DNA of 64,000 nt from Escherichia phage vB_EcoS_HASG4. The notes below the pieces were generated by a model that was not told the origin of the DNA, did no database searches, and saw only the letters and a program-made list of their open reading frames with translations. Below, one piece after another: positions 503-60,787 of the stretch (positions are counted from its first letter, which is position 1; the number at the start of each line of letters is the position of its first letter). The DNA is taken from sequence record NC_100331.1; one strand, 5' to 3'. The position numbers and the translations under genes are program-made.

Positions 503-692
503 TGGCTTAAATGCTGCACTGGAAAATGCATTGATGCAGCAGTGGGAGGCTGGATATAAGGATGGGGTTGAATCTTGTGCAAAAATAATGGATATTATGG
601 CTAATTCTGTAGTTGGGAAAGCCCATCCAGAAGTATCTGATATACTCCATAACCTTAGTAAAAACTTCAGAGAACAGGTGAAAAATGCGTAG
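471..692 (+). CDS. hypothetical small early protein
   Basis: Intact ORF; start uncertain (alternative ATG at 489). Stop overlaps the SIR2 start. Confidence 0.3.
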   Translation: MAFSKPMLPDNGLNAALENALMQQWEAGYKDGVESCAKIMDIMANSVVGKAHPEVSDILHNLSKNFREQVKNA

Positions 693-1506
693 ATTAATTA
701 TTATTAGCGGTGCAGGTTTGAGTGTTGAAAGTGGTGTACGAGCCTTCCGTACTGATACTGCTAGTGGTAAAGCATTGTGGGATGATTATGACTTAGAAGA
801 GGTATGTAATATTCATGCCTTTCGTGGTAATTTTTATCATAAAACTCATATGTTTTACAACAAGCGTCGTGAAGAGCTAAAAACTGTTGAACCCAATCTT
901 GCACACTTGCGTATTGGTGAATGGTATAAGAAATATCCAGGTCAAGTAGTAAACTTGACTACCAACGTTGATGACCTTATTGAGCGTGCTGGAGTACCAA
1001 AAGAAGACATACTCCATATTCATGGGTACCTGAAAGAAATTATCGTAGAGCACGCATTCGACCAGACACATGATATTATTGATATTGGATATAGTTCTAT
1101 TGACCCCGATGACTTTGACTGGGTTAAACCTAATGTAATTTTCTTTGGGGAACATGCTCCAGCGTACAAAACAATGTATGAGATTTTTGATGGCATTACC
1201 AGTCAAGATATGATCATTGTGGTTGGTTGCTCTAACCAAGTAATTAACTTCTACTGGGAATTATTTCCTGTTCTTAATCTGACTGCTGCAAAACTTATGG
1301 TAGTTAACTACTATGATAGTGCCCTAGCAGCGGAACCAGGCTATCAAGGTATGACTCGTAGTGAGATGTACCAGTTGGAAGAACGTGGGATCCCTTACTG
1401 GAGTAAAGGTGCGGTGGATGCTTTTAGTGACCCGGGTTTTATTGCTCGTGTAGAAGCTCATCTAGAGGGTAGACCTTATATGCCGGGGAAACAAATATGT
1501 CCATAA
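685..1506 (+). CDS. SIR2-family protein (sirtuin-like NAD-binding fold, no zinc-binding CxxC pairs)
   Basis: N-terminal ISGAGLSVESGVRAFR matches the sirtuin GAGISxESGIPxFR motif; TTNVDDL matches TQNIDxLH; HIHG carries the catalytic His; VIFFGE and VVGCS match later sirtuin motifs. No CxxC...CxxC zinc module seen. Confidence 0.7.
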   Translation: MRRLIIISGAGLSVESGVRAFRTDTASGKALWDDYDLEEVCNIHAFRGNFYHKTHMFYNKRREELKTVEPNLAHLRIGEWYKKYPGQVVNLTTNVDDLIERAGVPKEDILHIHGYLKEIIVEHAFDQTHDIIDIGYSSIDPDDFDWVKPNVIFFGEHAPAYKTMYEIFDGITSQDMIIVVGCSNQVINFYWELFPVLNLTAAKLMVVNYYDSALAAEPGYQGMTRSEMYQLEERGIPYWSKGAVDAFSDPGFIARVEAHLEGRPYMPGKQICP

Positions 1507-1679
1507 TTAAATCTGTGTATACACACCCTGATGATATATTTGTATGGGCGGACGGTAGTTGGTGCTATCGCTGTGAGCTGTGGGAAATGGACTATAAATC
1601 CGATGACTATGGTGTCATATATGTTGATACGGTTGAGTATGATACGTTCTTAGAAAGGGACAAAAGTGGAAATAAGTAA
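1497..1679 (+). CDS. hypothetical small protein (60 aa, Cys/Trp-rich)
   Basis: ORF with overlapping start/stop to both neighbours; no motif recognised. Confidence 0.3.
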   Translation: MSIIKSVYTHPDDIFVWADGSWCYRCELWEMDYKSDDYGVIYVDTVEYDTFLERDKSGNK

Positions 1680-2172
1680 TACTCCGATTATTTTTCTAGA
1701 CATTGATGGAGTGCTCAATTCGAGCATCTCCCACCATCATGCACCTGATGATGAAAAGATTTTCTTTGGAAGTGACTGGGTTTTCAAACCGCTTCTCAAG
1801 GCTTTTCAGGACTTTATTCGTCCTTCTCCGATAATGATTGTTGGAGTATCCTCATGGTTCTCTGTCAGGAATGAGGTGGAGAACGTTCACATTATGACCG
1901 GATTAGGTCTTATCGATCGTTTTCTAGGTACAACGGATTTTACGGGGGGTGGATTATCTAGGGGTAATTCTGTTCTTCGTTTCGTTGAAAAGCATAAGCT
2001 CAAACATTGGTGTGTGCTGGATGACGCTGGTGCTATGATGTATCAGTATCCAACAGTTATAGTCAATGGTAGGACTGGGATAAATCTTCAAGATTTAAAA
2101 GCTGTTAGCTATATGCTAGAATTTAGCCCAGATCTTGAAATGTGTAAATCCTTACAACAATTTAAGGTGTAA
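1666..2172 (+). CDS. putative HAD-superfamily hydrolase/phosphatase-like protein
   Basis: N-terminal IIFLDIDGVLN resembles HAD motif I (hhhhDxDGxL); later motifs not clearly identified. Confidence 0.4.
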   Translation: MEISNTPIIFLDIDGVLNSSISHHHAPDDEKIFFGSDWVFKPLLKAFQDFIRPSPIMIVGVSSWFSVRNEVENVHIMTGLGLIDRFLGTTDFTGGGLSRGNSVLRFVEKHKLKHWCVLDDAGAMMYQYPTVIVNGRTGINLQDLKAVSYMLEFSPDLEMCKSLQQFKV

Positions 2173-2174
2173 AT

Positions 2175-2603
2175 ATGTTCAATAATGTATTCTCTAAAGA
2201 AGCTAACCCAATTTTGGTTAACTTTTGGCGTACTCTCCCGGCTAGCCTGTATAATGAGGCTATTAACTCCTTGAAAATATGGTGTGAGAATAACGAAATC
2301 TCCTTTGCTTTTAAAGATGATATTGATGAGGCTCCCTGTATTGGTTTAATTGTTCAGGTAGAGGAGGGTCTTGAAGAAATTGTCGGCTGGAAAGAGTTAG
2401 ATGAAATGGGCTTAGTTTTTGCGTTAAACTATAAGCTGTTTATGCCTGCTAAGCATCGCCTCGTTGTTAACTATAAAACTAGTGAATCTCCTGGTTTTCA
2501 GGTTAATGAACGTTACGGTTGGTCTTACTCACCGGAAGAAGTGAATGAGGGGATTCAGAAACTTCGACGTTTCGGGTATATGATCCCAGGTTTAACTGCT
2601 TAA
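2175..2603 (+). CDS. hypothetical protein, paralog 1 of a tandem pair
   Basis: Shares clear similarity with the next ORF (e.g. CIGLIVQVEEG...ELDEMGLVFALNYKLFMPAKHRL vs CVGVFLSGYA...ELSAMGLIVALNFSLFHPRGLAI). Confidence 0.5.
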   Translation: MFNNVFSKEANPILVNFWRTLPASLYNEAINSLKIWCENNEISFAFKDDIDEAPCIGLIVQVEEGLEEIVGWKELDEMGLVFALNYKLFMPAKHRLVVNYKTSESPGFQVNERYGWSYSPEEVNEGIQKLRRFGYMIPGLTA

Positions 2604-2612
2604 GGAGGCAGA

Positions 2613-3005
2613 ATGGAACAAGTATATTGGCGTCAGATTGACCCTAGTTTGGTGAAACGTGCGGAGAAGCTGCTACAACGTTGGTTGGGGGTAAGACAAG
2701 CCTCCTTCACTTTTCCGGAGCAGCAAATAGACGATCCTTGTGTTGGTGTTTTCCTATCAGGCTACGCTAGGGAATGGGAATTGGATTGGAATGAATTGTC
2801 TGCTATGGGTTTAATTGTTGCACTAAATTTCTCTTTGTTCCATCCCCGTGGTTTGGCCATATGTCGTGTGCCTGATGACGGTTGTTCGCCCCATCTTTTA
2901 CAGATGGAAGATGATATTTGGGAGTACACTCCAGATATTCTCAAAGAAGCTAAAGAACAATTAAATCGTGTTGGAATCTATGTTCTGGGGCTAAATGATG
3001 AATAA
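2613..3005 (+). CDS. hypothetical protein, paralog 2 of a tandem pair
   Basis: See paralog 1; GGAGG-like SD (aaggaggcagaATG) upstream. Confidence 0.5.
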   Translation: MEQVYWRQIDPSLVKRAEKLLQRWLGVRQASFTFPEQQIDDPCVGVFLSGYAREWELDWNELSAMGLIVALNFSLFHPRGLAICRVPDDGCSPHLLQMEDDIWEYTPDILKEAKEQLNRVGIYVLGLNDE

Positions 3006-3192
3006 GGGATTTTGGAAAATAAAAGGTAAAATTTCTAAGTGGAATACTACAGGGAAAATTAGTAAGTCTCTAGAGATAGAGATAGCTAGAATGTTTACTG
3101 ATCCTGATTTTGATATAGGAAAACTAAGTAAAATAGATGCTAAAAAAGTAGATAAGTATATAGAAGAGATTAGAAGTATTTTAAGTGTCTAA
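2995..3192 (+). CDS. hypothetical small lysine-rich protein
   Basis: ORF followed by an intrinsic terminator-like hairpin; internal KISK repeats. Confidence 0.3.
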   Translation: MMNKGFWKIKGKISKWNTTGKISKSLEIEIARMFTDPDFDIGKLSKIDAKKVDKYIEEIRSILSV

Positions 3193-3199
3193 TACACAT

Positions 3200-3226
3200 A
3201 ACCGAGTCATTTTGGCTCGGTTTTAT
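3200..3226 (+). terminator. rho-independent terminator-like hairpin
   Basis: AACCGAG-loop-CTCGGTT followed by TTTT, directly after the stop at 3192. Confidence 0.5.
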
Positions 3227-3264
3227 CCGTACTCAAGACCAATGATAGCATTCTCTTTAAAAAT

Positions 3265-3320
3265 TTACTTGCACGATGCTCAAAATCTTGATATAATAGT
3301 TATATTGAATTGAGAGACAT
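3265..3320 (+). promoter_or_regulatory. strong early promoter (sigma70-type, T5-like family)
   Basis: TTGCAC-N17-TGaTATAAT with TATAAT at 3292-3297, then downstream AATTGAGAG box as at the other family members. Confidence 0.5.
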
Positions 3321-3796
3321 TAGTAAAAATTGATTTTGCTAATTTTTCTTGTTTACAATCCGCGATACGGAACAGTTAGGCTGCCCCATTAAGGGTTGTT
3401 TTAACTGTTACGTGTTAGTTTTTAAACAAATAATTAATAGAATACTTAGCGATCTACACCCCGTAGGAACCCTGGTAAGGCCTCGAAGCAACCTAGTGTG
3501 AGGTGGTTGTGAAGTGAGACGGGAAGAGTGAAAAACTCTGAGAAGTGATGACGTAAGGTATACTGCATCTAGTATGAGCTAGTACATGAAGCATTAGGTG
3601 AGCAAATCTGGCTTAGCGGCCATCCTCAAGGATTTGTGCGGTATAGTGAAGCGGCAGTGTAGCGTGAAAGTGGAAGTTGCCACCCCACTTCAGTATTTGC
3701 AATTAATTTGTTGAGAAATTGACAGTAACAGTTGTTCTATTCTTTCTGAATAGTCCTAAAGAAAACTTATTTCATTTCCAACACAGGAGTATTGTT

Positions 3797-6586
3797 GTGT
3801 TTTCAATCCTACAAGGTCATGCAGGATTTCATCGCGATTTAGCCACAGGCAATTGGCGAGAAGTTAAAGCAGAAGACTATCTTTTTGCTAAAAGATTTTC
3901 CTCAAAGCATCCTGAAGGTAAACCAGCTTCAATGCCCTTCAAGTTTGATGTAATTGACGAAATTGATCCTCAAACCCTAGTAGAAATGCTTCCTCTTATG
4001 AGACGTTTAACGTCTGACCCTCATATCGTTGCGGTACGAGGTCGATGTCTTGCACCTAAAAATAATGTGCGACGTAAGAAGGGCAACTTTAATGTATCTA
4101 ATCCAAGTCATATAATCGCAATGGATGTGGATGGTATTGTAGATACAGGAGGTTGTAACAAGTTTGATCTTGTTGGTATGGCTCGACATATTATTAGGAT
4201 GTTAAATAGTATTAGTGAGGATATGTTTCCTCTTGATGCAGGGTTTATTGCTCATGCATCATCTTCGGCTGGCCTAAAACCAGGTATCCGAATGCACTTA
4301 ATACTAGAATCTAATGTTAAAGTTACACAGGGTCAGATCAAGTTCTTATTTACATCTATCAACGAAAGTAGTAGACAAAAGTATGGCTTTGATATTGCCG
4401 ACTTAGCTTATTACTCCTCCGTACAGCTTCATTACTTTGCAGATCCTTTATTTATTGATGGTATAGTCGATCCGTTTAAAGCGGAGGGTGCTTCACGTCT
4501 GGTATTTGTTAAGGGTTCGAAGGTAAATTTGCCTAATAATCTAGTTGACTATGAAACAACTAGAGGTGAGTTTAAGGAGGAGTTCTATTCTTTACTCGAC
4601 CAAATTAAAGGTAAAAAAGCTGCCTCTGATAAAGTAGAGGAAACTATCAGCGAACTAGAAGAAGCTGAGGATGGAGTGTATCTACGTATTATTCCAAAGC
4701 TATATCACCGAGCGCTAGAGGATGGAGTAGATTTTGGTTGGCTAGAAAAAGAAATCCGCCCAGCTTTATCAGAATATATTGCAACTAAAGATAATAGCCG
4801 TAATATTCAGGATTATTTCAATAACGGACGGAAGCAGGCATTAAAAGCCTTTGTGAATAACTCTAAGCGTGAGATCCCTGAAGTATTAAAAGGTATCCCC
4901 CTTAAAAAGCTAGAAACTAATTCACTAGAGACCGACAACTTCTTGAAATTAAATACTGTACCACCAGAAGGTTATATGACTTTTGTAAAAGCAAGTCTAG
5001 GTACAGGTAAAACTACGGCGGTTGTGCGTTGGTTAGATTCAGGAGTTATTAAGGGTAATTTCTTAGCAATTACCAATACTCGAGCACTGGTATCTTCAAA
5101 TGCTAAGAAATTTAGTGCAGGACAATATGATAAGTCTGTAGATATGCTTAATTTTAAGCGTGGTGCTATTGACCGTATGTCCACAACTATTCACTCTTTG
5201 CATAAGTTCAAGAGTTTTATTGGTCAAATTGATGCAATCTTTATCGATGAATGTGATGCAGTAATGAATGACCTATTATTCGCCCCAGTTGTTAAGCAAC
5301 GTCGTGAGTGTATTCAGGTTCTTCGTGATATTCTTGCAACTGCAAAAATCATTATACTATCAGATGGTGATATTAGTGCTGAAACAATTGAAGCATATGG
5401 TTCTTTAATTGAGTTCGATAAACCAGTAGCATTTTACAATCATCACCGTAAAATGCTGTCAAAAGCTCATGCTTATGAGTTCCCTGATGAGTCCAGTATT
5501 TGGGTTGCACTTCAGACTTCTCTAGAGATGGGTGAGAAATCTATTCTAGTATCTGATTGTGGCCCTGATGAGCTTAATGAGAAGGGTATGGCACTACGTC
5601 GTAATACGGGTGCATTAGTTAAGGAAATCCATTCAAACTCTACCTCAGATGTGGATATTCGACGTATTCTGGATTACACAACTAATGAGTTAATTGATCA
5701 ACAAATTGATTGCTTATTATGTAGTCCATCCGTAACGAGTGGAGTTGACTTCAACTATTTTGATAACGTATTTGTTATTACTAGAACCAGTAATCAAGCG
5801 CCAAACATGCGTTTCCAAGCAATCAGGCGCGACCGTGGTGCTCAGAATATCTATTATTTTATTGATAAATCCACTAGTGGATTCTCCGCAGGTTCTGAAC
5901 AGTATAACATTGATGAGGGTTGGCTGGAGTTAGCACAGCAATTATACGCACGTCGCAGGGAGCTGGAATCTAGGAACTATACTAGTACTTTACGTTATTA
6001 CTTGCTTGATCAGGGTGCAACTATTGATATTTTCAGCGAAAGCTGGGGAACTATTGAAGGTGCTGGTAAAGAGTACACAGAAGAGCGAATTAAAGCTATT
6101 CTACATTCAACTCCGGATTATTGTGCTCCACGTCATGCGGATGCGTATGAAGCTAAGCTACTTCTTGTTCGCTATTATCATCTTGAGTCTATTAAAGATG
6201 TAACAGTTGAGCATGTTGAACAATATATCAAGGATAAACCGAATGATCGAGCAGCATTCTTCCATAAAATGCACGCGATGTTCTGGGAAGATATTAAGAA
6301 GTGTTCAAATGTCACTATCAAACCTTTCATAGAAGCTCTGAAAGGTAAGAAGAAAGATTTCTTCCTTAAAACAGGTCAGAGTGCTAACCCAAAATATGCG
6401 AGAATGTATCTTGGTATGATGGGTATTGGTAAGGATATGAACACTGAAAATATTGTAGACTGGTACAGAACCTATTGTAAAATCGAGTGTATGCCAATTC
6501 CTTATAAGTTCATGACTGACGAGGAAAAACATATGCATGATGAAGCAATGTCAGAGCTAGGTGCTAGAAATGACAGTGAAGAATAA
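3797..6586 (+). CDS. large ATPase, helicase-like (Walker A GTGKTT, Walker B IDECD); possible replication-initiation/origin-binding helicase
   Basis: Long ORF; likely GTG start at 3797 with AGGAG 6 nt upstream (track start 3719 is TTG). Motifs KASLGTGKTTAV and IFIDECDAV; N-terminal region has an IIAMDVDG acidic motif. Confidence 0.6.
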   Translation: MFSILQGHAGFHRDLATGNWREVKAEDYLFAKRFSSKHPEGKPASMPFKFDVIDEIDPQTLVEMLPLMRRLTSDPHIVAVRGRCLAPKNNVRRKKGNFNVSNPSHIIAMDVDGIVDTGGCNKFDLVGMARHIIRMLNSISEDMFPLDAGFIAHASSSAGLKPGIRMHLILESNVKVTQGQIKFLFTSINESSRQKYGFDIADLAYYSSVQLHYFADPLFIDGIVDPFKAEGASRLVFVKGSKVNLPNNLVDYETTRGEFKEEFYSLLDQIKGKKAASDKVEETISELEEAEDGVYLRIIPKLYHRALEDGVDFGWLEKEIRPALSEYIATKDNSRNIQDYFNNGRKQALKAFVNNSKREIPEVLKGIPLKKLETNSLETDNFLKLNTVPPEGYMTFVKASLGTGKTTAVVRWLDSGVIKGNFLAITNTRALVSSNAKKFSAGQYDKSVDMLNFKRGAIDRMSTTIHSLHKFKSFIGQIDAIFIDECDAVMNDLLFAPVVKQRRECIQVLRDILATAKIIILSDGDISAETIEAYGSLIEFDKPVAFYNHHRKMLSKAHAYEFPDESSIWVALQTSLEMGEKSILVSDCGPDELNEKGMALRRNTGALVKEIHSNSTSDVDIRRILDYTTNELIDQQIDCLLCSPSVTSGVDFNYFDNVFVITRTSNQAPNMRFQAIRRDRGAQNIYYFIDKSTSGFSAGSEQYNIDEGWLELAQQLYARRRELESRNYTSTLRYYLLDQGATIDIFSESWGTIEGAGKEYTEERIKAILHSTPDYCAPRHADAYEAKLLLVRYYHLESIKDVTVEHVEQYIKDKPNDRAAFFHKMHAMFWEDIKKCSNVTIKPFIEALKGKKKDFFLKTGQSANPKYARMYLGMMGIGKDMNTENIVDWYRTYCKIECMPIPYKFMTDEEKHMHDEAMSELGARNDSEE

Positions 6587-10559: not shown

Positions 10560-11339
10560 ATGAAAATCGAAATTCCAACACAATGTCCCTCTTGTGGTTC
10601 TAAGCTAGATCTTGTCAACGGACAATTATTCTGTCGTAATAAGTCCAACTGTCCAGCGCAATCAAGCAAGTTAATTGAGAACTTCTGTTCAAAAATGAAG
10701 TTAAAGGGCTTTGGCCCAAAAACTATTGAGAAGCTGGAGCTGACGAAGATTTCAGAACTATTTTACCTAACCGAAGAAGATTTGGTTAGAGCCGTGGGTA
10801 GCAAGGTTGCCGCTAAGTTAATTAGCGAATTAAATACTAAAGTTCGCGGAGACATTGACTTTGGTTCAGTTCTCGGTTCTTTAGGAATCCCTCTAATTGG
10901 AGAAGTTGCAGCAAAGAAACTATCCCAAAATTGCACTAGCTTCCATGATGTGAAGGCTGACGGCAAGGCTGGAGAAAATTACAAAGCCTGGCTAAATTCC
11001 CCACAAGGCAAGGATGTTATTGAACTACCGTGGAAATTTTCAACTGGTGTTAAGGGCACTAAAGCTGACGTCATCATTACAGATGAATTAGTTGCCCAGC
11101 CAAATGGAATCGCGGTATGTATTACCGGATCTTTGCAAGATTTTGCAAATCGAACGGATGCAACAAACTATTTAGAAGGTCTAGGATATACGGTTAAGAA
11201 ATCCGTTACCAAAGACGTCAAATACCTAATCTGTGAGGATGAATCGAAGCGTTCTTCCTCATCTTATAAGAAAGCCGAAACGAATGGGATAGAAATCCTG
11301 TCGATTAAAGAACTATTGGAGAAAAATAATAATGTCTAA
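10560..11339 (+). CDS. NAD-dependent DNA ligase, C-terminal subunit (zinc finger, HhH, BRCT-like)
   Basis: CPSCGSKLDLVNGQLFCRNKSNCPAQ is the LigA C4 zinc finger; downstream G-hairpin-G-like segments; ATG at 10560 with AAGGAAG SD. Confidence 0.75.
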   Translation: MKIEIPTQCPSCGSKLDLVNGQLFCRNKSNCPAQSSKLIENFCSKMKLKGFGPKTIEKLELTKISELFYLTEEDLVRAVGSKVAAKLISELNTKVRGDIDFGSVLGSLGIPLIGEVAAKKLSQNCTSFHDVKADGKAGENYKAWLNSPQGKDVIELPWKFSTGVKGTKADVIITDELVAQPNGIAVCITGSLQDFANRTDATNYLEGLGYTVKKSVTKDVKYLICEDESKRSSSSYKKAETNGIEILSIKELLEKNNNV

Positions 11340-12099
11340 ACTGAACTGGAACGTAGAAGGTGTAACCGAGTCTCTGAAAGCAAAAGCCACTGCTCTGGGT
11401 GTTTCTGTAATCTCTCAAGAACAAGTAGCTGCTATCGCTGCTGAACTGGCTGCTGAAACCGGCAAAGATGTTACTGCTCGCTCTGTTGGCTCTAAACTGC
11501 GTAAAGAAGGTTTTGAAGTACAAAAAGCTAACGAAGTACAGAAATCTCCGTGGACTCCTGAGCAGGAAGCTGAACTGGTTGATTTCCTGAATGCTCATGC
11601 TGGTCAGTATACCTATGCTGAAATCGCTGCTGCTGTAGCTGGTGGTCAGTTCGGTGCTAAACAGGTACAGGGTAAGATCCTGAGTCTGGAAATGACCGCT
11701 TCTGTTAAGCCAACCGAAAAAGCTGCTGCTGTTCGTTCCTTCACTCCGGATGAAGAAACTGATTTTGTTAATCAGGTTGTTGCTGGTGCTACTATTGAAG
11801 CTATCGCTGCTCACTTCGGTCGTAATATCAAGCAGATCCGTGGTAAAGCTCTGAGCCTGCTTCGTGAAGGTCGTATCGCTGCTATGCCGGTACAGGAAAC
11901 CTCAAGTGCTAAAACTCGTGAAGATCTGTTAGAAGGTCTGGATCTGGTTAACATGACTGTTGCTGAGATCGCTGAGAAAACTGGTAAATCTGAGCGCGGT
12001 GTTAAATCTATGCTGTCTCGTCGTGGTCTGGTTGCTAAGGACTATGATGGTGCCGCTAAGCGTGCTAAACTGGATGCAAAAGCTGCGGCTGCTGAATAA
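11332..12099 (+). CDS. internally repeated HTH-like protein with host-optimal codon usage
   Basis: Four repeats of an xTxAEIAxxxGxxxxxVxxKxLSxxxxG-type unit; strong bias to ctg/gct/ggt/cgt codons; followed by a terminator. Confidence 0.55.
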   Translation: MSKLNWNVEGVTESLKAKATALGVSVISQEQVAAIAAELAAETGKDVTARSVGSKLRKEGFEVQKANEVQKSPWTPEQEAELVDFLNAHAGQYTYAEIAAAVAGGQFGAKQVQGKILSLEMTASVKPTEKAAAVRSFTPDEETDFVNQVVAGATIEAIAAHFGRNIKQIRGKALSLLREGRIAAMPVQETSSAKTREDLLEGLDLVNMTVAEIAEKTGKSERGVKSMLSRRGLVAKDYDGAAKRAKLDAKAAAAE

Positions 12100-59440: not shown

Positions 59441-59794
59441 GCACTTTTTGACTTGACACGATATGCGGCGATACAAGGACTTTTGCTCAGACTTACCCAC
59501 AGGTTATCCTACTGTATAAATATACAAGGTAAAAAGATAGTGTTAACAACTGCAATCAATTTTAAGCGGCCTAAATCGCTTTCTAACGAGCAAAACGCTG
59601 TAGGGTAATATTAAAGTAAAGCCTCAACGTGTCGGCCTGGTGGCTTCGCCGTGTTTTGCTCTTTACTATACCGCTGCGCGGTTAGCATAAAAATAAGCGT
59701 TAGGCAAGGAAAATAAAAAGGTAAAATAATATTTGCCCCTAGAAAGAAAATACCTTTATCATTCACTCACCGATTAACGAGGGAGGCCGAACAA

Positions 59795-60787
59795 ATGAGG
59801 CTTTATAAACCAGATAACGCAACCGTCTTAAAAGGTGCATTGCGCAACCTGCTGGATGGTAGCAGAACAACCAGCATTAAACATTTTGTTTTCAATATTG
59901 AAACACTTCATCGTAATTTTCTTGATGATTACGATGCTTATAATATGAATAGTTTTCTACCGTTATATAATCAAGGGGCAACGCTTGTTTTATATAATCA
60001 GGAATCTCACTTGCTTACTAGTCGAGGGCCAGATACTGATTTTATTATAGTGAAAGGCAGTACAGTAAAAGCCTATGATGCGGGGGCGGGCTTAGAAGTT
60101 TTCACGATAGAAAATTATGAGCCTTATGATAAGGATCTTTATGACGTAGAAAATTTTCTCGATTCATTTTGGCGTTATTTATCAATTGGGTGGAATCGGT
60201 CGGATTATGACGGGTATCGTTTTGCGGCTGTAATGGCTTTTGATGATAACGGTAATTTTTTGTTACCGTCGGAATTATACCCGTATGTATATAATGATTT
60301 AATAGAGGAGGCTGGTTTTACTTTCTGGAAAGATGAAGATCAGCCTATTGACAATATAGAAAACCATGCTGTAAATTCTAACACTCAAAGCGTTAACACT
60401 CAAACTACTGAAAACAAAGGAAAAAATACCATGACCAAGATCGCTAATATCGTTGCCGCTAATAAATCCGCTGTTGTAAATGCTGCAAAACTGGAAGCGG
60501 GTAAAATTGCACTGACTCAAATCACGAAAGTAGCGGCTAAAAAAGCGCCGTTTATGATTAAAGGTTATATTGATACGCCGATTGGTCGTGTAGTGATCGC
60601 TAACCTATTGAGTGTAGCGGTTGACCAGTACGCCCCAACTAACCAAAAGGCAAAAGCGGTAGCAGGCGCGGCTATGGAAGCGGCAATGCTGGAAATGGTG
60701 CAAAGTTTTAACATCGCTGAAATGATTGATGAAATGGTAAAAGGTATCGATATTTCTACTTTTACCACTAACACCGAAAGCGAGTAA
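59795..60787 (+). CDS. hypothetical protein
   Basis: 330-aa ORF with GAGG SD; first gene of a rightward cluster. Confidence 0.45.
   Translation: MRLYKPDNATVLKGALRNLLDGSRTTSIKHFVFNIETLHRNFLDDYDAYNMNSFLPLYNQGATLVLYNQESHLLTSRGPDTDFIIVKGSTVKAYDAGAGLEVFTIENYEPYDKDLYDVENFLDSFWRYLSIGWNRSDYDGYRFAAVMAFDDNGNFLLPSELYPYVYNDLIEEAGFTFWKDEDQPIDNIENHAVNSNTQSVNTQTTENKGKNTMTKIANIVAANKSAVVNAAKLEAGKIALTQITKVAAKKAPFMIKGYIDTPIGRVVIANLLSVAVDQYAPTNQKAKAVAGAAMEAAMLEMVQSFNIAEMIDEMVKGIDISTFTTNTESE

Follow-up and report, generated by a model that had tools for sequence, protein, structure and literature searches.

Locus and early leader of D2

The DNA analysed here is a stretch of 64,000 nucleotides (nt) from Escherichia phage vB_EcoS_HASG4 (record NC_100331.1), hereafter the window, and its element of interest is a structured RNA domain of 331 nt on the + strand at 3403-3733, within the untranslated leader of the replication gene D2. 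Over window positions 3150-3850 the sequence shows 100% identity with that of Escherichia phage vB_EcoS_EASG3 (MK373799, record positions 59,714-60,414 of 120,715 base pairs (bp)), and by its sequence the source phage is T5-like, of the genus Tequintavirus. The leader occupies 59.8-60.4 kb of the 120.7-kb record, and its T5 counterpart lies about 48.9% along the T5 record. An early operon precedes it on the same strand and ends in a terminator at 3200-3226. The gene D2 (3797-6586, + strand) encodes a bipolar superfamily 2 (SF2) helicase, or 'replication origin-binding protein', as indicated by Pfam Herpes_ori_bp and PHROG 3712. It starts with the GTG at 3797, and its T5 orthologue is D2 (T5p106), recorded as 'putative DEAD/DEAH box helicase; similar to replication origin binding protein'. 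T5 D2 is a bipolar SF2 helicase that is essential for T5 DNA replication, its amber mutants being without DNA synthesis (PMC3632103). Searches of Pfam and the Protein Data Bank with the N-terminal 390 amino acids (aa) of D2 gave no informative match.

The leader follows a T5 early-type sigma-70 promoter (3260-3305, + strand) that is kept in T5, Stitch, and Shivani. It comprises an A-tract at 3260-3264, the -35 hexamer TTGCAC at 3269-3274, a 17-bp spacer, and the extended -10 element TGaTATAAT at 3289-3297. A simple scanner missed this promoter because its -35 element matches at only 3/6 positions. The sequence ATATT at 3302-3306 corresponds to the discriminator reported in all known T5 early promoters (Klimuk et al. 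2020, PMC7472727), and the T5 record itself has a promoter annotated at the equivalent place. Transcription is inferred to start at about 3304, which leaves approximately 493 nt before the GTG. An initial annotation, made from the sequence alone, had described an untranslated leader of about 490 nt behind a strong promoter at about 3265-3297, with no credible open reading frame (ORF) before 3797, and these claims are borne out. Its description of the stretch as purine-rich and richer in GC than its neighbours is also correct. The GC content of 3401-3700 is 0.41-0.47, compared to 0.27-0.35 just upstream and about 0.34-0.40 downstream. The same segment has a GC skew of +0.27 to +0.32 and a positive AT skew, and is thus rich in purines.

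Architecture of the RNA domain

The domain at 3403-3733 is delimited by its constant length, by covariation, and by a covariance model. Its first 44 nt or so pair with its last 42, forming a closing rod (P1) whose 38 bp fall into four segments. The 5' strand of the rod lies at 3403-3446 and the 3' strand at 3692-3733, and both duplex energy and covariation support the pairing. The P1 duplex of the window has an energy of -31.9 kcal/mol, compared to -9.9 +/- 3.1 in shuffles. Enclosed by the rod are 10 or more further helices, together with a loop-loop pseudoknot around the GGCUUAGCGGCC hairpin. At least 17 G-U pairs occur in the fold, which makes it specific to the transcribed + strand.

The two helices next to the rod have their 5' strands within 3449-3464. 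P2 pairs 3449-3451 and 3454-3459 with 3657-3665 and is supported by blind helix matching in five lineages, and P3 pairs 3460-3464 with 3519-3523 and shows a compensatory change among A-type phages, the core type to which the window belongs. In this region the A-type has two compensatory pairs in P2 and one in P3, and the B-type of T5 and Stitch also has compensatory pairs. A local hairpin considered at this place, 'Ha' (CUAC/GUAG), is rejected, as its bases form the long-range helix P2.

Hairpin Hc (3489-3509) pairs 3489-3493 with 3505-3509 and is supported by covariation. Its arms are CAACC/GGUUG in the window, CAAUC/GAUUG in Pectobacterium phage DU_PP_V, and CGGCA/UGCCG in Pectobacterium phage My1, and it is 100% paired in the covariance-model alignment. 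The Hc loop carries UGAGG at 3499-3503, which pairs with CCUCA at 3624-3628 to form the pseudoknot. The pseudoknot pairs are UGAGG/CCUCA in the window, UUAAGG/CCUUAA in DU_PP_V, UUAAGG/CCUUAG in My1, and UAGG/CCUA in T5. The compensatory UAAGG/CCUUA falls at the same columns in an alignment whose model omitted the pseudoknot. Hairpin Hd (3525-3539) pairs 3525-3529 with 3535-3539 and has a G-C to A-U compensatory change in the A-type.

An extended arm at 3559-3645 is composed of P5 (3559-3566/3638-3645), He (3567-3573/3593-3599), and P6 (3602-3609/3630-3637). P5 and P6 covary across lineages, and P5, He, and P6 all show compensatory pairs within the B-type. Inside P6 lies the mini-hairpin GGC-UUAGCG-GCC at 3610-3621, the only strongly sequence-conserved island of the core. 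The form GGCUUAGCGGCC is found in the A, B, Klebsiella, Pectobacterium, and Providencia lineages, and Proteus has GCCUUAGCGGG. In My1 the stem is GAC...GUC, which is a compensatory change.

The two hairpins of the initial annotation are fragments of this domain, and the long-range rod that closes it, the main feature of the leader, had been missed. The second, placed at about 3664-3690, is a real covarying helix. This hairpin, Hh (3670-3688), pairs GUGG at 3670-3673 with CCAC at 3685-3688 around an 11-nt loop, AAGUUGCCACC. It changes from U-A to G-C within the A-type and from A-U to G-C within the B-type, and reads GAGG/CCUC in the Klebsiella lineage. The first, placed at about 3372-3407, does exist as an inverted repeat (3367-3413, arms 3367-3378 and 3402-3413, 92% complementary), but its 3' arm belongs to the conserved rod, overlapping the P1 5' strand where 3403-3411 pairs with 3725-3733. 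Hairpin 1 thus competes with P1. It is restricted to types A and B of E. coli and Salmonella phages, and it looks absent from the Pectobacterium and Klebsiella leaders, in which no AACAGUU complement is seen by eye. At best it is a transient or alternative pairing.

Comparative evidence for the fold

Eight lineages, from phages of Escherichia/Salmonella, Klebsiella, Pectobacterium, Providencia, and Proteus, share the architecture and the length of the domain, while their sequences are mutually near-random. The domain measures 319-331 nt and the P1 rod 28-40 bp in all eight. When the terminal 46-nt segments of the domain were duplexed in each lineage and compared with shuffles, the energies ranged from -24 to -38 kcal/mol against -10 to -15 in the shuffles. 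The rod sequence changes while its pairing is kept. It reads AACUGUUAC/GUAACAGUU in the window and AACUAUUAC/GUAAUAGUU in Stitch, with T5 as a G-U intermediate, GGCUUA/UAAGCU in the Klebsiella type, and GGUUAUUAUAUAAC/GUUAUAUAAUAACC in My1. The rod pair 3407/3729 provides a series of G-C, G-U, and A-U.

Plain MAFFT misaligned the divergent lineages, and anchor-based helix matching and a covariance model were used instead. Blind helix matching in five lineages, guided by four sequence anchors only, found 4 conserved helices compared to 0.20 +/- 0.42 in shuffles. It recovered the rod and P2 (3454-3459/3657-3662), and the P2 strands prove to be two of the conserved 'islands'. Looser matching gave 39 helices against 7.3 +/- 3.1 in shuffles and added P5, P6, further P1 segments, and the pseudoknot.

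Alignments within each type are unambiguous, at 96-98% identity, and were built without reference to structure. In the A-type alignment 95.5% of cells are paired, a figure that includes Hc set one column off. Double changes occur in 7 pairs, a number reached by 75/500 shuffles, and in 29 cells, reached by 0/500. None of the 500 shuffles attained the observed covariation score. In the B-type alignment 99.6% of cells are paired, with double changes in 6 pairs (46/500 shuffles reach 6) and in 18 cells (0/500). Controls in which the partners were slid by 1-3 columns gave 0-1 double-changed pairs in both types. The helices with double changes are P2 (two), P3, Hd, P4, P5, and Hh in the A-type, and P2, P5, He, P6 (two), and Hh in the B-type.

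The covariance model was made from A-type cores only, with 217 positions and 67 pairs, and represents the core rather than the full domain. It locates the core at the expected place in the other lineages. The scores are 80.9 bits for Pectobacterium DU_PP_V, 58.7 bits for Pectobacterium My1, 34.3 bits for the Klebsiella type, 28.9 bits for Stitch, and 27.5 bits for T5 (E-value 9e-6). Providencia PR1 reaches 13.5 bits (E-value 0.03), and Proteus, at 5.4 bits, is not significant but is hit in the right place. In the resulting alignment 94.9% of cells are paired, compared to 74.2% in shuffles, and 53 of the 67 pairs show double changes, compared to 21.5 in shuffled and 12-20 in slid controls. Taken as a whole, a conserved functional RNA structure almost certainly exists at 3403-3733, and the element very probably acts as an RNA module rather than as DNA.

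Distribution and sequence turnover

The element matches 442 phage records by blastn, of which 162 cover at least 80% of the query and belong, like the window, to type A. Phages of E. coli and Salmonella carry two core types, A in the window and B in T5 and Stitch. Identity to T5 changes sharply along the locus. The flanking coding sequences are 79-94% identical and the segment 3306-3402 is 100% identical, while the core at 3447-3691 is 39% identical, which is near random, with aligned lengths that differ by only about 2 nt. The core island GGCUUAGCGGCC is invariant in this comparison, and the 5' part of D2 is 84% identical.

More distant lineages have an ORF-poor gap of 600-820 nt with a strong promoter and a UUAGCGG motif upstream of the D2 homologue. 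These are Klebsiella Sugarlandvirus, Pectobacterium DU_PP_V and My1, Providencia PR1 and PSTCR5, and Proteus Novosibvirus. A 'D2-leader RNA' is defined here as a domain of 319-331 nt with a rod of at least 28 bp and a UUAGCGG hairpin inside P6, located upstream of a D2 or origin-binding protein (OBP) gene. The window, T5, Stitch, the Klebsiella KpGranit-type, DU_PP_V, My1, and PR1 all have it. Proteus is a marginal member, as it has the motif and the rod together with the low model score given above. No empty site lacking the domain was seen in the enterobacterial lineages examined.

Depending on the lineage, 63 to about 250 nt separate the domain from the gene. Proteus phage VTCCBPA139, which has about 250 extra nt between the domain and the OBP gene, has two perfect 12/12 sigma-70 promoters, at 705-733 and 1435-1464 of its examined locus. 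They precede the RNA and OBP separately, and the second lies 37 nt before the OBP start codon.

The relationships of the core disagree with those of D2. The DU_PP_V core scores 80.9 bits with the A-type model where its D2 is about 74% identical, and the T5 core scores 27.5 bits where its D2 is about 90% identical. The A-type core is thus nearer to Pectobacterium DU_PP_V than to T5. Such incongruence indicates that the core moves horizontally between phages and fits an exchange of cassettes.

A metagenome pattern scan with the conserved 5' motif GAUACGGAACAGUUAGGCUGCCCCAU returned only known types and chance matches, and no new lineage. Complete E. coli genomes and plasmids contain no match to the element. 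In five Vibrio T5-like phages the OBP gene is preceded by an ORF-poor gap of 600-1100 nt with a strong promoter. Their leaders have near-identical 5' and 3' flanks and unrelated cores, a pattern as in the window, and a half-against-half duplex test, poorly suited in its design, gave no signal in them. In one distant T5-like phage the leader has near-exact internal direct repeats of about 100 nt (approximately 2233-2420 of its locus), and the VspSw_1 leader also contains long internal direct repeats (approximately 1255-1500 of its locus). Their sequences suggest that these repeats are duplicated RNA modules.

Leader segments flanking the domain

Stem-loop SL1 lies at 3312-3349 (+ strand), close to the 5' end of the leader, and appears in minimum free energy (MFE) folds as GAGAGA-CAUUAGUAAAA-AUUGA-UUUUGCUAAU-UUUUCU followed by a U-run. 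It is 100% identical to T5 and occurs as a single copy within the window. An equivalent hairpin of other sequence is found in the Klebsiella, Pectobacterium, Providencia, and Proteus lineages, and the Stitch and Shivani records label SL1 as 'terminator'. A second promoter-like site, TTGATT-18-TACAAT at 3330-3359 (+ strand), overlaps SL1. The evidence for it is weak, as it matches the scanner at 9/12 positions and such matches are no more frequent across the region than expected by chance. Between SL1 and the domain lies the ultra-conserved motif GAUACGGAACAGUUAGGCUGCCCCAU (3364-3389, + strand), recognised by comparison across lineages. It is identical in A- and B-type phages and near-identical in the Klebsiella and Pectobacterium lineages, and it forms, together with SL1, the segment of 3306-3402 that is fully identical to T5. 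The decamer GCTTAGCGGC has one exact and one 1-mismatch recurrence elsewhere in the window, on the minus strand at 12052-12061 and 10809-10818, which is within chance, since 33/100 shuffles gave at least 3 matches.

On the 3' side of the domain, MFE folds contain a small hairpin, CUAUUC-UUUCU-GAAUAG (3737-3753, + strand), that is kept in the A and B types. The ribosome-binding region of D2 (3780-3799, + strand) comprises a CAACA/UGUUG hairpin with AGGAG at 3785-3789 in its loop and the GTG at 3797, and both AGGAG and the GTG are kept in relatives. No terminator lies between the structured domain and D2.

Insertions are seen around the leader in some relatives. Gostya9 and some other A-type phages have a hairpin-rich insert of 97 nt directly after SL1, between window positions 3349 and 3350. 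In Gostya9 it is bordered by the direct repeat TTTTTCTT, and from this sequence context it looks like a miniature inserted element, or else the other phages may have undergone a deletion between the repeats. In Salmonella phage Shivani (1002-1500 of its examined locus), an HNH homing-endonuclease gene lies just upstream of the D2 promoter. A second TATAAT-like box and the SL1 sequence GAGAGACATTAGTAAAAATTGATTTTGCTAATTTTTCT follow the HNH gene, so that the promoter-proximal part of the leader is duplicated.

Upstream of the leader, the intrinsic terminator of the early operon (3200-3226, + strand) is an inverted repeat, AACCGAGTCA/TGGCTCGGTT, followed by TTTT. It is annotated in MK373799 and is 93% identical to T5. 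The operon itself spans 685-3192. It encodes a Sir2-family protein at 685-1506, a protein at 1666-2172 with HAD_SAK_2, the HAD domain known from 'Swiss Army Knife' RNA-repair proteins, and a tandem pair of DUF7415 paralogues at 2175-2603 and 2613-3005. A 65-aa ORF at 2995-3192 (PHROG 29527) is missing from T5.

Comparison with known RNA families and systems

The covariance-model check proposed in the initial annotation gave no family match. Rfam 15 contains 4227 covariance models, which include riboswitches, T-box, group I/II introns, 6S, transfer-messenger RNA (tmRNA), GOLLD, ROOL, OLE, HEARO, and raiA. At gathering thresholds they gave 0 matches in the whole window. At E<=10 in 3100-3900 there were chance-level matches of the snoRNA type only, at 10-17 bits compared to thresholds of at least 36, and the leaders of ten other lineages gave no match at E<=1. 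ARAGORN found 0 transfer RNA (tRNA) or tmRNA genes in the whole window. The inspected records of phages that bear the element have no RNA annotated there, and some contain short 'hypothetical protein' calls. Literature searches found no description of the D2-leader RNA and no T5 transcript-end maps.

GOLLD and ROOL resemble the D2-leader RNA in being large, multi-helix, pseudoknotted, and phage-encoded, with a fold that is conserved rather than a sequence. In contrast, the D2-leader RNA does not match their Rfam models and has approximately 330 nt, compared to more than 500. They occur near tRNA genes, whereas the D2-leader RNA is found in the leader of a replication gene, and only in enterobacterial T5-like phages. 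HK022 put RNA is likewise placed directly behind an early promoter, where a long early operon begins. It consists of two stem-loops of about 65 nt, however, and nothing in the D2 leader resembles it.

The stems cut by RNase III in the flanks of 16S and 23S ribosomal RNA (rRNA) and in T7 early RNA are similar in that the flanks of a compact RNA form a duplex within a longer transcript of the host polymerase. In a stem of this kind the flanks of a structured RNA pair over some 20 bp or more with few interruptions, and the rod of the D2 leader has 38 bp. The T7 sites share with it their location in an early phage transcript. They are local hairpins of about 60 nt, whereas the D2-leader rod encloses 250 nt, and cleavage there is a prediction.

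The IncI-alpha and IncB plasmids, with repZ of ColIb-P9 and repA of pMU720, likewise have a long structured leader and a long-range pseudoknot in front of a replication-initiator gene. Their systems comprise an antisense RNA, a leader peptide, and a pseudoknot at the ribosome-binding site, none of which is seen in the D2 leader. The simple consensus scan found no antisense promoter in it, the sole minus-strand site (3184-3155) being outside the leader, and the absence of a conserved ORF means that no leader-peptide ORF coupled to the initiator was found. The pseudoknot does not involve the ribosome-binding region, as 3499-3503/3624-3628 lies about 160 nt upstream of the Shine-Dalgarno sequence.

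ColE1 RNA II, T4 oriF and oriG, and the T7 primary origin are similar in having a strong promoter and an untranslated, structured, G-rich transcript beside replication genes, and the D2 leader shares the arrangement of a promoter followed by an untranslated transcript. It differs from these transcript-primed origins in that it has no origin motifs or signs, its transcript runs into a gene, and its conserved feature is RNA pairing rather than an unwinding element.

Alternative explanations

The initial annotation offered a structured non-coding RNA, a regulatory leader, or an origin or primer transcript. The first two are strongly supported, because a large covarying + strand fold is conserved across eight lineages, and the third is without support. 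Among the explanations that compete with a self-contained RNA domain, an unprocessed cis-regulatory leader that tunes D2 translation or mRNA stability is a serious rival, although on balance it is judged rather unlikely. In its variants the leader would sense a metabolite or tRNA, or would bind a phage protein, such as D2 or a different early protein in an autoregulatory loop. It would agree with the position of the domain directly upstream of an essential replication gene in every lineage, with the absence of a terminator before D2, and with the Shine-Dalgarno sequence and start codon within a small conserved hairpin. The ultra-conserved 5' segment, fully identical to T5, suggests a sequence-specific binding site, and the replication-initiator genes of IncI and IncB plasmids are known in general to be controlled by long pseudoknotted leaders. 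The variable distance between the domain and the ribosome-binding site, however, does not fit such a leader, nor does the perfect promoter between the domain and the gene in the Proteus phage. The pseudoknot leaves the ribosome-binding site out, no riboswitch or T-box model matches, and known operators are much smaller than a domain of 330 nt closed by a 38-bp rod.

A replication origin, with the transcript as an R-loop or processed primer or with the DNA bound and unwound by D2, is improbable. The leader adjoins the gene for the presumed initiator, has a strong promoter and then an untranslated G-rich transcript, and lies near the middle of the genome. A 1976 electron-microscopy study, as it is cited in later papers, reportedly found multiple internal T5 origins. 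Nevertheless, the leader region contains no iterons, and its only repeats are two-copy repeats of 9-11 nt, with no direct repeats beyond chance. No DnaA boxes occur in the leader, the sole DnaA-like 9-mer being at 3839 inside D2, and there is no GC-skew inflection at the leader, as the switch occurs about 25 kb into the window. The strand bias of T5 editing in a published experiment indicates dominant unidirectional replication from one genome end (PMC10055335). Compensatory pairing with G-U on the + strand and a pseudoknot are properties of a folded RNA and not of a protein site on duplex DNA, and the 5' part of D2 has not diverged together with the core. A neutral spacer or mobile-element remnant, such as a decayed intron-like or miniature element tolerated in the leader, is still less probable. 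The cassette-like pattern of conserved flanks and a swapped core, the repeat-bordered insertion nearby in Gostya9, and the homing-endonuclease gene just upstream in Shivani would suit it. It is unlikely because the fold is under purifying selection, as the compensatory substitutions imply, and because the domain stands at the same place with the same length in every enterobacterial lineage examined, with no empty site; no group I/II intron model matches either. That the leader encodes one or more small proteins, as in some records, is scarcely credible. ORFs of 33-50 aa are present in the window and several records have 'hypothetical protein' features, but between 3313 and 3797 no ORF exceeds 50 aa and none is kept in frame or position across lineages, and the Stitch leader has no + strand ORF of at least 25 aa. 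The three codon phases hold similar numbers of variable sites (16/14/14 and 9/12/11), with no 3-base periodicity, and the substitutions are paired rather than synonymous-like. The search for a conserved ORF in relatives, proposed in the initial annotation as a refutation, was accordingly negative and showed no coding-type substitution pattern.

Proposed function

The favoured reading, which includes the mechanism proposed below and has a probability of roughly 0.45 as a whole, is that 3403-3733 is a self-contained, pseudoknotted RNA domain of approximately 330 nt in the early D2 leader that acts at the RNA level. Several features indicate an autonomous RNA module. The range of domain-to-gene distances points to such a module rather than to occlusion of the ribosome-binding site. 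The separate perfect promoters of the RNA and the OBP gene in Proteus, and the exchange of the core as a cassette with relationships that disagree with D2, have the same implication.

RNase III cuts long double-stranded RNA, releases rRNAs through their flanking stems, and processes T7 early RNAs. A duplex of about 38 bp that brackets a compact RNA is the arrangement from which RNase III releases an RNA, and excision of an RNA of about 300 nt is thus favoured. In the proposed sequence of events, host RNA polymerase would transcribe the domain early in infection, and P1 would close once its 3' strand emerges, displacing the transient hairpin 1. Host RNase III would then cut the long double-stranded rod. 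The products would be a D2 mRNA whose leader is shortened to 63 nt and a stable, structured RNA of about 300 nt. The released RNA could affect replication, or a host or defence factor, in trans, and the processing could set the stability and translation of the D2 mRNA. By analogy with the rRNA and T7 stems, excision by RNase III and a role in trans are put forward tentatively, with somewhat less than an even chance.

Several points weigh against the favoured reading. The cross-lineage alignment is fitted to the covariance model and leans towards its structure. The compensations within types come from few sub-lineages, and the counts of double-changed pairs are not beyond those in shuffles (75/500 and 46/500). 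The comparative structure lies 19 kcal/mol above the unconstrained MFE in the window (-78.8 compared to -97.8) and 3.6 kcal/mol above the MFE in T5. Parts of the model, in particular P4, P5, He, and the filled-in pairs, may accordingly be incorrect or depend on tertiary contacts. Folding z-scores are -3.0 for the leader and -4.5 for the domain, but they are unremarkable in several lineages, and a coding control has -2.5. They are uninformative, since several leaders do no better than this control. Vibrio and other distant T5-like phages also have ORF-poor gaps, of 600-1100 nt with conserved flanks and variable cores, but the covariance model detects no homologue in them. The transcription start, the processing, and the stability of the RNA are all deduced, and the analyses pointed to no target or partner of the RNA.

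Significance

The domain is an apparently undescribed, conserved, pseudoknotted RNA of about 330 nt in enterobacterial T5-like phages. T5 is a classical model phage, and T5-like phages are common in therapy and biocontrol collections. The element is present in hundreds of sequenced genomes, yet the region is blank or has spurious small ORFs in the inspected records. In practice, records should list it as an RNA feature, and engineered T5-like phages should retain it unaltered. The ultra-conserved 5' flank, the hyper-divergent core with its fold kept, and the disagreement between the relationships of the core and those of the neighbouring gene make the leader a good system for studying how an RNA fold is maintained under fast sequence turnover.

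It is possible, though doubtful, that the domain represents a new class of large pseudoknotted phage RNA that is cut from the early D2 leader and acts in trans during T5-type infection. If so, it might, for example, be an RNA cofactor in the D2-dependent initiation of replication or regulate that step, or it might divert a host nuclease or defence system as a decoy. An exchange of cassettes with the fold kept would then explain the near-random cores inside surroundings that are 80-100% identical. An RNA of such size and complexity, supported by covariation and placed where the replication operon begins, points to a step at the RNA level that has gone unrecognised in T5-like phages, whether in early expression, in the control of replication, or in the conflict between phage and host.

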